Shown one piece after another: positions 55,615-61,604 of a DNA stretch of 64,000 bases. Under the pieces are notes generated by a model. The model made no database searches. It was given only the letters and a program-made list of their open reading frames with translations, and was not told the origin of the DNA. The position numbers were made by a program, and so were the translations under genes. The stretch comes from Lytechinus pictus (Eukaryota), in assembly GCF_037042905.1 (NCBI RefSeq), contig NC_087251.1, forward strand, positions 2,978,001 to 3,042,000, read 5' to 3'. The first letter of the stretch is position 1. Every line of letters begins with the position of its first letter.

Positions 55615-56703
55615 AGGGGGGGGGGAACGGGGGAGGATGTGAAGTGTGGGAGGATGGATTTTAGTCGATTTGAATAATTTCAATGGATGAAACGATTGTA
55701 TCTTTAAAAGCATTTAAAGCTTCACTCAAACGATCACAAAAATAACACAGTACGACAATACGCCAGACGGTGGCCTGTACTTATAGAGAAGAAGAAGAAG
55801 AACATTAATTAAACTCAACATGCAGAGAGGGTCAATTATTACATGAAACAACATTGAAACAAGGATAAATCTTACGAAATATAATCAATATTGATAAAAT
55901 CTTTTAATCAAAATATATCATATAGTTAATATGGGTATCGCAATTTCAACATGCATTATTTTGAGGGGAACTGCATTTACAAGCAATACTTTTCAATATA
56001 TCTCTCAATTTACAAAGCTTTAACTTGACTTGAAAAAGGCAAATCCATATCGTATGCTACTATAGTTTACACAAAATGTTTTAATGTATAACATCGTAAT
56101 GCCGAATACCTTCCTTTCATCATTGTACGTCCACCGTTTTCGGTATTTTTTTAATTCAAAGGGTATCAATTATGACAACGGAAATGAAACAAGAAACAAA
56201 ATCTATAATAAAGCCAATCTGAAATTAAATGCAATCAGTATGGTCTCTGCATTTACTTCACACCATTTTTCTCTCAAGTCACATTTCTATGTCCCAAAAG
56301 TATCTAGGCTTATATGATTATAGCAAAACGGTTAACGTTGAAGTTTATTAAGATTTGTATGCATGATAAAGTAGTTTATGGAATTAAAAATGTCGTTTAA
56401 AACATAATAACTTTTTAAAGAAAAATTTCGAACATAATTTGTTCCTTCAAAATAAATAGATGCTCACCTGTTGATTCGCATCGTTGACCGAGGAATCCCT
56501 GGGCACACTCGCAAACCTGGACATTCGTATCGAATGTACAAGTACCACCATTTAAACAAGGATCTGATAAACATGATGGCTCTATAATGTTACATATGGA
56601 AATAATATGAAAAAAATTAATGTGCAACGATGTTTTAGAGGTAAAGATAACGGTTTGTGGTAATAAGCACCCGGACCGTGTAATGCTACAACTACAACAA
56701 CAA

Positions 56704-56744
<41 letters not shown>

Positions 56745-59700
56745 ATAACTACTACTACCACCACCATCACTACTAACATGACTACTACTACTTTTACTAC
56801 TTCTATTAAGTTACTGGAAAGTCGTAGCCGTGCTAAACCCAAAGCATTTTGGTGGTCGTGGAAATTGTCCAACAGTTTCTCTAAGGTATGGCATCGTGCT
56901 TTAAAAGTACATACAATAACGAAAAATAGAGGTCGGGTATATAAACTCTAAAACGCAATATCTCAACATACATTATTCTTATTGAAAGCTATACTTACCA
57001 TTCATCTCGCAGTACTGACCAGTAAATGAGGGTAAACATTGACATATAAATGAATCTTTCTGAGAGCTGATGAAACACTGTCCGCCATTGAAACAAGGGT
57101 TAGATGAACACGGATCTGATTGAGAGGATTAAGTGTAAATACTTAAGGTTGTCATTAGAACATTGGCTAAACATATTATACATCCGTATGTTGATATTTA
57201 TAGTATTTGATTACACACCATAAAAGACGAAATGATAGAAGAAAATATACTTATATTAAGAAACAGCGACCAACGACATTTCTTACCTAGGGTATCATAA
57301 CTTGGGTAAAAATTGAAATTAAAGTGTAGTCAGAATTGACAATTTAATTGAAATTATATTCCACCTGTTTTCTGCATAAATCCAGTAAAAGTTTTGTTAT
57401 TTGCTCTGTGTATTACATGATAATGAGCTTCAACGTTAGTAACTTACCAATAAGTTCACAACGAGACCCTACGAAACCATCTCTACATTCACAACTGTAG
57501 ATTGTACTGATAGCGATGCAAGATGCACCGTTGAAACAAGGATTTGATGAACATGCATCATAACGTAGCACTGCTGTGTAAACATAACGAAATAAAACCA
57601 AATTTGTCATGGTGGAATAAAAAAATCAAAATACAAGAATCAAACCTAAGAAACTAGAAAATACAGGGTAATGGGATGAAAGAAAAATATAAAATTGACT
57701 CGTGTGTTATATCAACTACCAAAACCTACAAGGACAGTAAAAGGAAAGTATGCATAGTATGGACACAAGTGATTAGGATCGAAATATTATTCAAAATTTG
57801 CGAAGTGTTAGAAATACACTAAGTATCATGATTTCGATATGTTTCATTTACGAAATATACCACTGGGTGTAGAACTCAACTGTTTGTTGTTTATGTTTGT
57901 TTCTGTTTATGGTAACTCCCGTAGGAACTTGGCACGACAGCACTTTTGCTGCTAAACGCTAAGCTGGTATATAAAACATTTTATAGGAAACATTTTTACG
58001 TCTATAGGTTAATCAGTCATAGTTGCTGACCTTATAGACGACAGATATTACTCTCGGGCCTTTTTATCAAAGTGGAGACAATGGCAGAGTGAGAATTCGA
58101 ACTCACAACCTTGCAATTATGAGTCCAATGCTCTAACCACTGGACCACACGACCCGTGAATTAACTATGAATAAACAAAAAAAAATCTAATATAAAATTT
58201 AATATATTCATCTTTACCCGACTATTCTAATTCTTACATTCCTGGTTGCAGTTCCTGGTTGCAGATTTCATATCGATGTATTAAGGAAGTAACGTCGCAC
58301 AGTGGGCCAGAATTGGTTGTAAGTGCGCCAAAAATATATTTCGAGTTATATTTTTACTTTAACATGTTGATTAAGGGTAATTTTGGGCGTAGAATCGACT
58401 GAACATAATTTAAAGCCGATGTGACGTCACCTTGATACCAAATTTTGATTGGCTACTTAAAACCTATCTGTGAAAAGACAAATTACGCTAAACAATGTGT
58501 AGTATATAAACTTTGTGTTATGTGCTACTGTCAGATTGACAAGAGTGAATGTTGGTTTATGCTTCTCACATGCCTAAAAAGTGTGTATGAGATTCCAAAA
58601 ATAATTTTATGGCATCAAAATGATCATTAATTAGATTTATAAAATCTGAAATATATTCCGTGCTTTATCAAGGTGTGTTGACTTGTGTAAAACGCAGAGT
58701 ATAAATGTATCACTATGTAGAGGGTTTTTTGCTGAAATTATTCTAGAAGTAAGTTTTATCTTTGGAAGAGTTGTGGGTATAGCCCTTATTTGCGTTAGCG
58801 ACCTTTATTTTGTTTACATTATGCCCGGAATTCATGTCATTTTCATGGCATGGAAGGGGAATCGTCCTCGCTGTGCAAAAGCTAACGGCAATGTACACCC
58901 GTACGGTGCGCTACGACGACTGCGCGGTATAAACATGACCGTTTTTTAACAGGTTTTTGGGGTGTTGTGTCAAGTAAAATCGGCTCTAACATGAAAACGG
59001 GCAAAAACGGGCAGCTCAAATTGGTATCGACTTAAAGCTTAGACATCGGGAAAAATGATGCTTATAGAATTAAGACGGAAATCCACGGAAATCTAAAAGT
59101 TTCTAATGTAAATGCAAAAAACATGGATTTTCAGCCTATTTCGAGGAATAATCATCCTATAAACCTCCTGAAAGATGTCTTTTATCTACTTTGAACCCTT
59201 TCACACGAAAGAGGAATATATCAGGATTATGTGGGAGCCATTTCAGATTCCTACATGAAAAACCTCATGTAAAATGGCCTGTTTTTCAACTAGGTTGTCA
59301 TATACGTGACATTTCGCAAAATGTCACATTTTACGATTTGAGGTAGGAAATTAACAACCTTTATGCAAATTCTGGAATGAAATATTTTGCCGAAGTATTC
59401 TTCAAAGTGTTGTCTTTCAGCTGGGCATAACAAAAATTAAAAATCTGAAATTGCCCAAAATGACTTTTGGCGCACTTTTGTTTCGCCCCGGCCCACTGTG
59501 CGTCGTTAATGTGTAATTTAATATATTCATCTTTACCCGAATATTCTTATTCTTACATTCCTGGTTGCAGTTGAGTCCAGTCCAGCCAATTTCACAGGTG
59601 CACCAATAAACTGCATTTTGGTCTTCAAACAATGGATCAATGACGTCACGAACGGTGGTACAGGTTGCTCCATTAAGACAAGGGTTGGACAGGCAGGGAT

Positions 59701-61430
59701 CTAAGTGTACCGTATAAAACGTGCAATCGGGTGAAATTAAAGAGCGTAATCGGAGTGCAATTATCGATCAAAGAGCGTGAGCAAAGAGTGCAATCAAATA
59801 ATGAATAAAACTATAGTAACCAAGAGTGTAATCAAACAGTGCAATAGAAGGTTTCATTGGATGTAGGCCTACAAAATGAATCATAAATGAAAAAAGTGGA
59901 TACATTCATTTACAGGGGAGAGGAGCGAGTTTTCAACCCCGTTATTTTCTGGTGACACCCCTCCCCTCTGTAAACTTCCTTACCTGGTTCAGAGCAGGTT
60001 GTACCAGTAAAGGTAGAAGGGCATTCACACCAGAAGCCTTGAACCATATCTTCATTACCACCGGGTGCAATCAGTGTACAAGTACCACCATTCATACATG
60101 GGTTCGAATAACACGGATCTGTAAGGGGGCAAACAATGGAAGCGACGCTTATCAGATGTATTCAATTCTTTTTTTCAAGCTCAGCATGTTTAGCGAAGCC
60201 GGAAATAAGCAAATTCACAGTTAGCTTATGATAAATTGTTCTCGAAAAACCTTTCCCATTTTCACTAGGATGACTCCTAACCCTTTCAAGTGAAAAAGTT
60301 TTGTAAGCTTTCTCGACAGAGGATCTTGTGGTATTCCAATTTTAAGAAAGAAAGACACGGTATAGACTAGGTGAAAAGAATCATACGTCAGTCTGGAAAT
60401 CGTTTGTTTTATTGTCTGATTTCTTACTCATTGACAATTATTTGGGCTACTGGTAAATAGCAATGATTATGAACTCGTATACACATCAGTTTGGATGTGA
60501 CGCACATGTTTTGGAAGGTATACATGAATAATAATCAAATCACAAAATCTTATGTCAGTAAATTAAAAAACCACCTTGATGGTTTGTCTCAAATGAAATT
60601 GCTCGTGCGCAGTTACAACTGAGAAAATGTCTCTTAGAGCTTTGTGAATTGATTAACTCTTGGTCGTATTCCCATGTTTCATTTATTTCTTGAGTCGAGG
60701 TATATCATGCCCCGCTCTATTTCATATCATGATCACGGTTATCAATACGTTTATTCTACCTTCATCTCTGTCAATTTATTTGCAATACTCACCAATATTT
60801 TGACAATTGGTACCCACATAACCAAGACAGGAGCAAAAGTACGGTGTTAAGTTTTGGTTGAATTCAGTCTGCATCAACTGGAAACACCGTCCCCCATTTT
60901 GACATGGGCTGGGATTACACGGGTCTGTATGTAGAGTTGAAATAACATTTAATGTGATGTGATTAATATTAAAAATAGAGTATATAATAAACCACAATAA
61001 TAACGATGCATCTTATCACATTAATGAACTACTTTTACATTGGTGCAAATCACATCATCATCATTAATGGTCAAAAGAAATTGATTTAAACGTGCACATC
61101 AGGTATCATGCCCCACATCTGTATCAACGTCAAATAATGATTCTAAATATTAATCATTAATCGCAAATAATAAAGAAAAATATTACACAAATTCATCACT
61201 CAACATAATTGAAAGGAATCCTTACTTGATTGGTAAGCTTCTGTACAGTTTATTCCGTAGTACTCTGAAGTGCAAATACAAATGTAACCCAGTGAAGCAA
61301 AGGCTTCCTCCCGACAAGTCCCTCCATTCAAACAAGGCTTTTTAACACATGGACCTTATTGAAGCAGGATAAACATAATAAAATTGAGAGAACAAATATC
61401 AGTCACGTAGCAAACATACCAACTATATAT

Positions 61431-61462
<32 letters not shown>

Positions 61463-61604
61463 TTACTACTACCAATACTACTACTACTTTTCCCTCTACT
61501 ACTACTACTACTACCAATACTACTACTACTTTTCCCTCTACTACTATTCATACTACTGTTACTACTACTACTACTACTTCTACTACTACTATTACTACTT
61601 CTGT

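Follow-up and report, generated by a model that had tools for sequence, protein, structure and literature searches.

Does an insertion in the genome of the sea urchin Lytechinus pictus carry a working counterpart of the signals used in V(D)J recombination? Those signals, the recombination signal sequences (RSSs), consist of the heptamer CACAGTG and the nonamer ACAAAAACC separated by a spacer of 12 or 23 bp, and an earlier note, made from the sequence alone, had pointed out that the two ends of a transposon within the 64,000-nucleotide stretch analysed here (NC_087251.1, positions 2,978,001 to 3,042,000 of the forward strand; hereafter the window) resemble such a 12/23 pair, an asymmetry that it took to be either functional or incidental. 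The transposon occupies window positions 58298-59500, is 1203 bp long, and starts with CACAGTG and ends with CACTGTG. We find that it is very probably a non-autonomous, non-coding cut-and-paste transposon of the Transib superfamily, belonging to a sister family of Transib-N1_SP, that was moved in trans and has symmetric ends of the 23 type. We have named its family "family A"; the orientation assigned to the element, plus, is arbitrary.

Both tips of the element carry the heptamer without a mismatch, CACAGTG at 58298-58304 and its reverse complement CACTGTG at 59494-59500, and it is flanked by a perfect, GC-rich 5-bp target site duplication, CGTCG, at 58293-58297 on the left and 59501-59505 on the right. 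The terminal inverted repeats are 36 nt long and bipartite, each comprising an 11-nt block, a 12-nt spacer and a 13-nt block. In the left repeat (58298-58333, plus strand) block 1, CACAGTGGGCC, occupies 58298-58308, the spacer AGAATTGGTTGT 58309-58320, and block 2, AAGTGCGCCAAAA, 58321-58333; in the right repeat (59465-59500, minus strand) block 2 lies at 59465-59477, the spacer, which reads GGGGCGAAACAA inward, at 59478-59489, and block 1 at 59490-59500. The blocks are exact at both ends and the two spacers are mutually unlike. With up to one mismatch allowed, these are the sole two matches to block 1 in the window, where 0.32 are expected and 6 of 100 shuffled sequences reach two, as well as the sole two matches to block 2, for which 0.13 are expected and none of 100 shuffles reaches two. 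Directly after the heptamer, positions 8-11 read GGCC in both ends. In its account of the exact heptamers, the perfect duplication and the two conserved blocks around a non-conserved spacer of equal length, the earlier note was accurate. Three of the element's stop-to-stop open reading frames, 99, 64 and 64 aa long, were scanned against Pfam without a match above the curated cut-off, and the element is therefore non-autonomous.

The earlier note had suggested building a family from the termini, and we searched the element against the window's own 812-Mb assembly, scoring 43 matches in a search that gave 545 first-look candidates. Of these scored matches, 37 cover the whole length of the element and are 90-100% identical to it. 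The terminal pattern CACAGTGGGCC-N10-14-AAGTGCGCCAAAA occurs 358 times on the forward and 359 times on the reverse strand of the genome, 717 in total, compared with none on either strand for a control pattern; family A comprises several hundred copies. We fetched 30 copies including that of the window (one locus was fetched twice, as L004 and L006) and found a perfect 5-bp duplication in 24, with three more off by one base. Among the remaining copies, L018 counts as perfect once a 2-nt terminal deletion is allowed for, another lacks its right end and the last is unexplained. The duplications have the consensus CGNCG, with counts of 24 for the first C, 23 for G, 20 for the second C and 22 for the final G, and of the 30 copies 27 retain CACAGTG at their left tip and 26 at their right. 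The element as a whole is clearly beyond chance given its end-to-end copies, the terminal-pattern count and the recurring duplications. The search thus yielded a large family with the same ends, and the survey supports the earlier description of a well-preserved, non-coding Transib/RAG-type insertion with a GC-rich 5-bp duplication.

The family also has a marked preference for its target. The 45-nt neighbourhood of the insertion sites is 59% GC, versus 34.5% in the window, and 9 of 28 copies sit within CCG/CGG repeats (microsatellites). A palindromic CGNCG is what would be expected of a symmetric enzyme that joins with a 5-nt stagger. Two full-length copies lie head to tail on contig C6 (2951286-2952510 and 2952516-2953730), exactly 5 nt apart, and in the right flank of L010 a further CACAGTG begins 3 nt after the duplication; both cases suggest repeated use of the same CGNCG or CCG-repeat targets. 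One copy, L003 (C17:24837037-24838261), has a left spacer longer by 4 nt, which places block 2 at offset 27 and not 23, with an intact CGTCG duplication and 99% identity to L002. Its long spacer reflects either a later 4-nt insertion or a tolerance of spacer length.

The palindromic target also bears on whether the insertion might be a miniature element of another superfamily, in which CGTCG would be coincidental or part of a longer inverted repeat. In the window copy the inverted repeat seemingly continues for 8 nt past the CAC tips (TAACGTCG and CGTCGTTA) with TA outside it, as that alternative would have it. However, in the other fetched copies the flanks differ and homology stops at CAC, and 5-bp duplications recur in the numbers given above. 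Because homology ends at CAC elsewhere, the extension is a by-product of the palindromic CGNCG target; the family survey refutes a miniature element of another superfamily, to which we assign next to no probability.

Having established the family, we compared its termini with published elements. Transib-N1_SP, from Strongylocentrotus purpuratus, has the printed consensus termini CACAGTGGGCC AGGGAGGAACCA AAGTGCGCCAAAA at both ends, and in the same figure 8 of 11 listed copies of about 0.9 kb have matching two-sided duplications, CGGCG, CGCCG or CGACG (Kapitonov & Jurka 2005, PLoS Biol 3:e181, PMC1131882, Fig. S4g). The element described here resembles Transib-N1_SP in that both blocks are identical, the spacer is 12 nt long, the duplication is a 5-bp sequence of the CGNCG type, and it is non-coding and about 1 kb in size; the window termini agree with the printed consensus at 24 of 36 terminal positions, that is, at all block positions. 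It differs in having two unlike spacers, whereas AGGGAGGAACCA is present at both ends of Transib-N1_SP, and in its length of 1.2 kb as opposed to about 0.9 kb. A search of the genome allowing up to three mismatches found no exact Transib-N1_SP terminus and 10 sites, all at exactly three mismatches and all family-A variants. As the Transib-N1_SP terminus is absent from this genome and the spacers differ, family A is, judged by its termini (the interior of Transib-N1_SP is not printed), a sister family of Transib-N1_SP and not Transib-N1_SP itself.

The hallmarks of Transib elements given by the 2005 paper include 5-bp duplications, CAC tips, GC-rich targets, a heptamer-23-nonamer layout and a terminal repeat of about 38 bp with a variable stretch of about 23 bp (PMC1131882). 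With terminal blocks identical to those of Transib-N1_SP, a 5-bp duplication, CAC tips, a layout of the 38-bp type and a GC-rich target, the window element agrees with each of these, and its classification as Transib held. The autonomous sea urchin element described in that paper, Transib1_SP, is 4132 bp long, encodes a 676-aa transposase in two exons and has a CGGCG duplication (PMC1131882). It is from the same host group, has the same type of target duplication and, as described there, is the kind of partner that would be expected for family A; it differs in coding for a transposase, and no counterpart of it was found in this genome. A search of the literature on Transib in other sea urchins and on end asymmetry in Helicoverpa Transib returned nothing specific.

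The published ends of RAG-like transposons look different. These elements have 5-bp GC-rich duplications and CAC heptamers (Martin et al. 2020), and in their ends the heptamer is immediately followed by an A-rich region (TR2) (Martin et al. 2020; Martin et al. 2023, PMC10629977, in the parts cited here). Amphioxus ProtoRAG, acorn-worm RAGL-A and bat-star TransibSU-1_PM, whose ends read CACAGCGAAAAAT, share the CAC tips and the 5-bp GC-rich duplications with family A but have an A-rich sequence after the heptamer and two genes, where the present element has GGCC. A TR2, as would be expected of a RAG-like derivative, is therefore lacking at positions 8-11 of both ends of the window element.

We then asked whether the ends of family A differ from one another as a 12/23 pair would. 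Words resembling the nonamer were scored against the RSS nonamer as identities out of nine, and all three that the earlier note had listed are present at 6/9: CCAAAAATA at 23 nt past the left heptamer (58328-58336, plus strand; six of its nine bases lie within block 2), ACAAAAGTG at 12 nt past the right heptamer (59473-59481, minus strand), and CCAAAAGTC at 23 nt past the right heptamer. Among the 9-mers of the window 1.8% score at least 6/9. At 12 ± 1 nt, such a word is expected by chance in about 5% of cases when one end is considered and about 10% when either may carry it; taken alone, the right-end 12-spaced word is near the chance level. The last five bases of ACAAAAGTG come from block 2, and three of these five mismatch the nonamer; its first four, ACAA, come from the spacer. 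In 27 of 28 copies block 2 itself starts at position 24 (offset 23) of either end. CCAAAA begins 23 nt past the heptamer in both ends, where the match to the RSS nonamer is 5-6/9, with A at positions 5 and 6. In 20 of 28 copies the left 23-spaced word is CCAAAATTA, at 5/9.

As the same block 2 stands at the same distance in both ends, the layout is of a symmetric 23/23 type, and a functional 12/23 pair is not supported. For a pair of that kind we would look for a nonamer at 12 nt in one end and at 23 nt in the other, with no equivalent at the other spacing; the right end has 6/9 words at both distances and, because the full block 2 is also present at the 23-type distance, is better described as "12 and 23" than as "12". 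Compared with true V(D)J signals, the element shares the perfect consensus heptamer and an A-rich word at 23 nt in both ends, but the nonamer matches at only 5-6/9, there is no true 12-type end, and a mobile element is bounded by these sequences, not gene segments.

Nor is the asymmetry kept in related elements. We identified a second non-autonomous family, family B, which is about 2 kb long and has the same two blocks with different spacers, AGAATGAACCCA on the left and AGGAGAGAGCAA on the right; its three examined copies (L047:1001-3001, L048:1001-3002 and L043:1001-5173) have the duplications CGCCG, CGACG and CGCCG. When 100 listed sites of the terminal pattern were sorted by reading, 41 were left and 34 right ends of family A and 11 were left and 14 right ends of family B, so that family B accounts for about a quarter of them. 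Patterns written to exclude the known spacers and to find further types returned 6 and 12 sites only, all of them variants of A or B, and the rare spacer variants are right ends of family A. The 12-spaced word is GCAAAAGTG in the right ends of family B, ACTAAAGTG in a low-copy right-end variant and ACCAAAGTG at both of the symmetric ends of Transib-N1_SP, in each case at 5/9; in left ends the word at 12 nt is TTGAAAGTG in family A and CCCAAAGTG in family B. Within the family-A ends variation is greatest in the left spacer, where 10.1% of cells deviate compared with 1-2% in the blocks. Family B has the opposite pattern, its left spacer being invariant in 11 of 11 of the listed sites and its right spacer deviating in 5 of 14. 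With the left spacer variable in A and the right in B, there is therefore no end-specific constraint common to both families.

The strongest alternative on this point is that the two ends are functionally distinct in the manner of 12/23 signals, the right being read through the 12-spaced ACAAAAGTG and the left through the 23-spaced CCAAAA, with one of each needed. Both words score 6/9, and left ends reach 2-4/9 at the 12 spacing. The related right ends show a mild tendency to [A/G]C.A before block 2, which begins AAGTG (GCAA in family B, ACTA in the low-copy variant), where left ends have TTGA or CCCA. There are also precedents. Transib ends were linked with the 12/23 idea in print as early as 2005 (PMC1131882), and the insect families Transib5, Transib2_AG and TransibN1-3_AG are described as having RSS12-like 5' and RSS23-like 3' ends (Kapitonov & Jurka 2005, Fig. 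4C legend, PMC1131882; Yakovenko et al. 2021); these belong to the same superfamily and embody the same 12/23-mimic idea, but by description their signals are of unequal length, whereas the distal block is at an equal distance here. In addition, the ends of acorn-worm RAGL-A are reported to have a 10-bp spacer asymmetry (Martin et al. 2023, PMC10629977). Against this alternative stand the presence of the entire 13-nt block 2 equally far from the heptamer in either end, the five of nine word positions that are block 2 itself, three of them mismatching the nonamer, and the roughly one-in-ten frequency with which either end would offer a 6/9 word by chance. The right-terminal 70 nt are, moreover, evenly conserved, at 98.4% majority, without a local peak at the 12-spaced word. 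Finally, Transib-N1_SP, which has the same blocks and, as printed, perfectly symmetric ends, multiplied nonetheless, so that asymmetry is unneeded for multiplication with these blocks. We consider ends read as distinct 12 and 23 signals very unlikely, and a functional two-kinds-of-end rule in general about as doubtful; the apparent 12/23 asymmetry is most likely incidental. Of the two possibilities that the earlier note gave for the asymmetry, functional or incidental, the first was not borne out, and the note's suggestion that the nonamer-like motifs and their spacing be checked for conservation gave a divided answer, with the 12-spaced word well conserved within family A and reduced to 5/9 in family B, the low-copy variant and Transib-N1_SP.

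What enzyme might move such elements? With the Pfam RAG1 profile (PF12940) as query, the genome yielded 17 matches at an E-value threshold of 0.001 and 22 when the threshold was relaxed to 10. By BLASTP, all 22 candidates are RAG1-like, sharing 45-100% identity with two core frames that are open over 595 and 621 aa. The 595-aa frame comes nearest to amphioxus RAG1L (6b40, E = 6e-150) and to vertebrate RAG1. Against the solved Helicoverpa Transib it gives E = 3.6e-5 (25 bits over about 100 residues), and since the match is this weak, a canonical Transib gene could easily escape a RAG1 search. The first frame, open over 595-612 aa and scoring 250 bits to Pfam RAG1, lies within C182:15469-20814 (L049 and L054) and is duplicated on contig C233. 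Upstream at this locus is a cysteine-rich frame, and a convergent frame of 291 aa appears, by eye only, kelch-like (RAG2-like). A RAG1-like gene with a convergent RAG2-like gene is the classic RAG1L-RAG2L arrangement. Between 4000 and 26000 on C182 neither a family-A terminal repeat nor a CAC...GTG pair that has a 5-bp duplication is present. The second open frame, of 621 aa, is on contig C4 (C4:15674907-15676589, L050) and is 50% identical to the first. A tandem array at C9:18152611-18173215 (L052), with periods of about 2.4 and 4.1 kb, contains degenerate RAG1-like C-terminal fragments scoring 21-32 bits to Pfam RAG1 and 47-52% identical to the RAG1-like frames.

Several candidates for an autonomous partner were rejected. 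The weak RAG1 matches on the C9 array and on contig C2 are degenerate RAG1-like fragments without terminal repeats. Pairs of terminal repeats 2.2-7.9 kb apart (L043-L046) hold nested insertions: L044 contains a Tc1/Sleeping-Beauty-like frame and L043 a weak GIY-YIG match by Pfam, the insert of L045 appears by eye to resemble the reverse transcriptase of a long interspersed nuclear element (LINE), and L046 has extra DNA. L051 is interrupted by sequence that is LINE-like by eye, L056 is an old half-copy, and L057 holds nested copies of family A.

Several of these results weigh against the reading that we prefer, a Transib element with symmetric ends moved in trans. No autonomous copy with the family-A termini was found in the genome, either by the RAG1 profile search or among the long terminal-repeat pairs fetched, and the enzyme is accordingly inferred; the RAG1-family genes detected are only RAG1-like and not canonical Transib. 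All but one of 28 copies of family A preserve the 12-spaced word of the right end. The left ends of families A and B have AGAATGA in common in the spacer, and their right ends show weak homology to each other, 68.5% over 124 nt, so the ends have kept separate identities in both families. The descent of both from one asymmetric parent suffices to explain these separate left and right identities, and no functional rule is required, although a functional distinction keeps a small probability. It is because the spacers keep their identities in two families, the word is kept as it is and only RAG1-like genes were found that we retain, as a slim prospect, the idea that an echinoderm RAG1-family enzyme, possibly the intact RAG1-like/RAG2-like pair of the host in place of a canonical Transib transposase, tells the left and right ends apart.

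A related proposal is that host RAG1-like and RAG2-like proteins mobilise the family, or recognise and cut it, in place of a canonical single-gene Transib transposase. It draws on the RAG1-like identity of all 22 Pfam RAG1 candidates, on the one locus that pairs a RAG1-like gene with a convergent 291-aa frame that is kelch-like by eye, and on the 5-bp GC-rich duplications and CAC heptamers that RAG-like transposons share with family A (Martin et al. 2020). Yet published RAG-like ends, as far as they are given in the sources above, are A-rich straight after the heptamer where GGCC is found here, and the surroundings of the RAG1-like/RAG2-like pair on C182 lack such a terminal repeat. The cited part of Martin et al. 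2023 (PMC10629977) states that echinoderms have no known RAG-like element competent for transposition, whereas Transib with apparently intact ends occurs in numerous echinoderms. The RAG1 search is, furthermore, a poor probe for canonical Transib, and the absence of such a gene among the matches says little. We regard mobilisation by the host proteins as improbable to a high degree.

We therefore prefer mobilisation in trans of symmetric-ended elements by a dimeric DDE transposase of the RAG1/Transib kind. Such an enzyme would bind both ends alike, through the CACAGTG tip and the 13-nt block AAGTGCGCCAAAA 16 nt further in, would cut at the CAC tips, and would join the 3' ends 5 nt apart into a GC-rich palindromic CGNCG target, repair of the 5-nt stagger then giving the 5-bp duplication. 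The 12-nt spacers would be tolerated filler, and ACAAAAGTG at the right end would be an accident of filler abutting block 2. The window copy landed in an intron of a gene with epidermal growth factor (EGF) repeats. This scheme takes the anatomy, family size, duplication length and target, and terminal-block identity from our observations, and the enzyme and its chemistry from work on Helicoverpa Transib and RAG. Helicoverpa Transib is a DDE enzyme that forms hairpins on the flanks and integrates with a 5-bp stagger. The mechanism is presumed to be the same as that of Helicoverpa zea Transib (structures 6pqn and others), which is an insect element.

The copies of family A are not identical with one another. 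That of the window clusters with four others at 96.8-97.4% identity and differs from the majority of this five-copy subgroup at 21 of 1203 positions (1.7%), and the other 23 aligned copies differ from their own majority by a mean of 3.1%. The termini are intact, yet nothing points to present activity of the family or the window copy. In contigs of public sequencing runs, each of which held at most a quarter of the sampled words and barely covered the window's unique flanks, family A was present in three samples of one species label and also under a second species label, there at about 92-99% identity in the eight pieces shown. None of the listed contigs bridges either junction of the window insertion. 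A 736-nt contig from run X3 follows the right flank from 59895 to exactly 59507 at about 94% and then continues leftward with 65 unlike letters; it could, tentatively, derive from an allele lacking the element and perhaps the flank duplication described below as well. When the genome was searched with the right flank for a haplotig or paralogue, its own locus and the 66-nt repeat described below were the only matches.

The gene that received the insertion is on the minus strand, and the intron with the element is flanked by EGF-domain exons (Pfam EGF, E = 1.1e-7, 5.4e-8 and 7e-6). The host exon is at approximately 59557-59703 (minus strand; open frame 59417-59767, Pfam EGF E = 1.1e-7), with a donor GT placed by eye at 59556/59555, and the next EGF-domain exon downstream on the minus strand is at approximately 57450-57560 (open frame 57413-57625, minus strand, E = 5.4e-8). 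The element is about 50 nt into the intron past the donor ...CAG GAA T/GTAAGA, which is in phase 1 by eye. The earlier note had placed it among symmetrical phase-1 EGF exons; Pfam supports the flanking EGF exons, and the phase was seen at this one donor by eye only.

The end of the exon, its donor and the opening 50 nt of the intron are present a second time, in degenerate form, at 58188-58270; this duplicate, which does not belong to the transposon, matches 59507-59594 (66 nt at 92%, with the alignment extended to 58270 and 59594). These flank copies of 83-88 nt bracket the element; the right copy begins one base after the duplication, and 22 nt of unrelated sequence separate the left copy from the left CGTCG. 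The duplicate may have arisen from an older tandem duplication or in a repair event tied to the insertion. Further to the left, 57900-58167 is a very high-copy repeat, at which the summed contig depth reaches 10^5 to 10^6 in three runs (the unique flank has tens) and where the ends of many contigs fall at 58154-58158. Imperfect repeats rich in CTA/CTG trinucleotides are found in neighbouring introns at 56671-56813 and 61421-61500.

The literature of 2005 already contains this kind of element, its exact terminal blocks and the 12/23 idea, and what is new here is the family of another sea urchin. For the annotation of repeats this is routine, adding a Transib-N family of a few hundred copies whose termini were known from a different sea urchin, and it documents a sharp preference for CGNCG targets, often within CCG repeats. 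The family also provides an abundant and clean set of substrates, with a perfect heptamer, a well-delimited second block and spacers that vary naturally, in one copy lengthened by 4 nt, for the study of how echinoderm Transib or RAG1-like enzymes read transposon ends. Its importance would be greater if the partner enzyme were found and shown to distinguish the ends; were the ends told apart in this way, several hundred elements would represent a living invertebrate rule of two kinds of end, with RSS-perfect heptamers.

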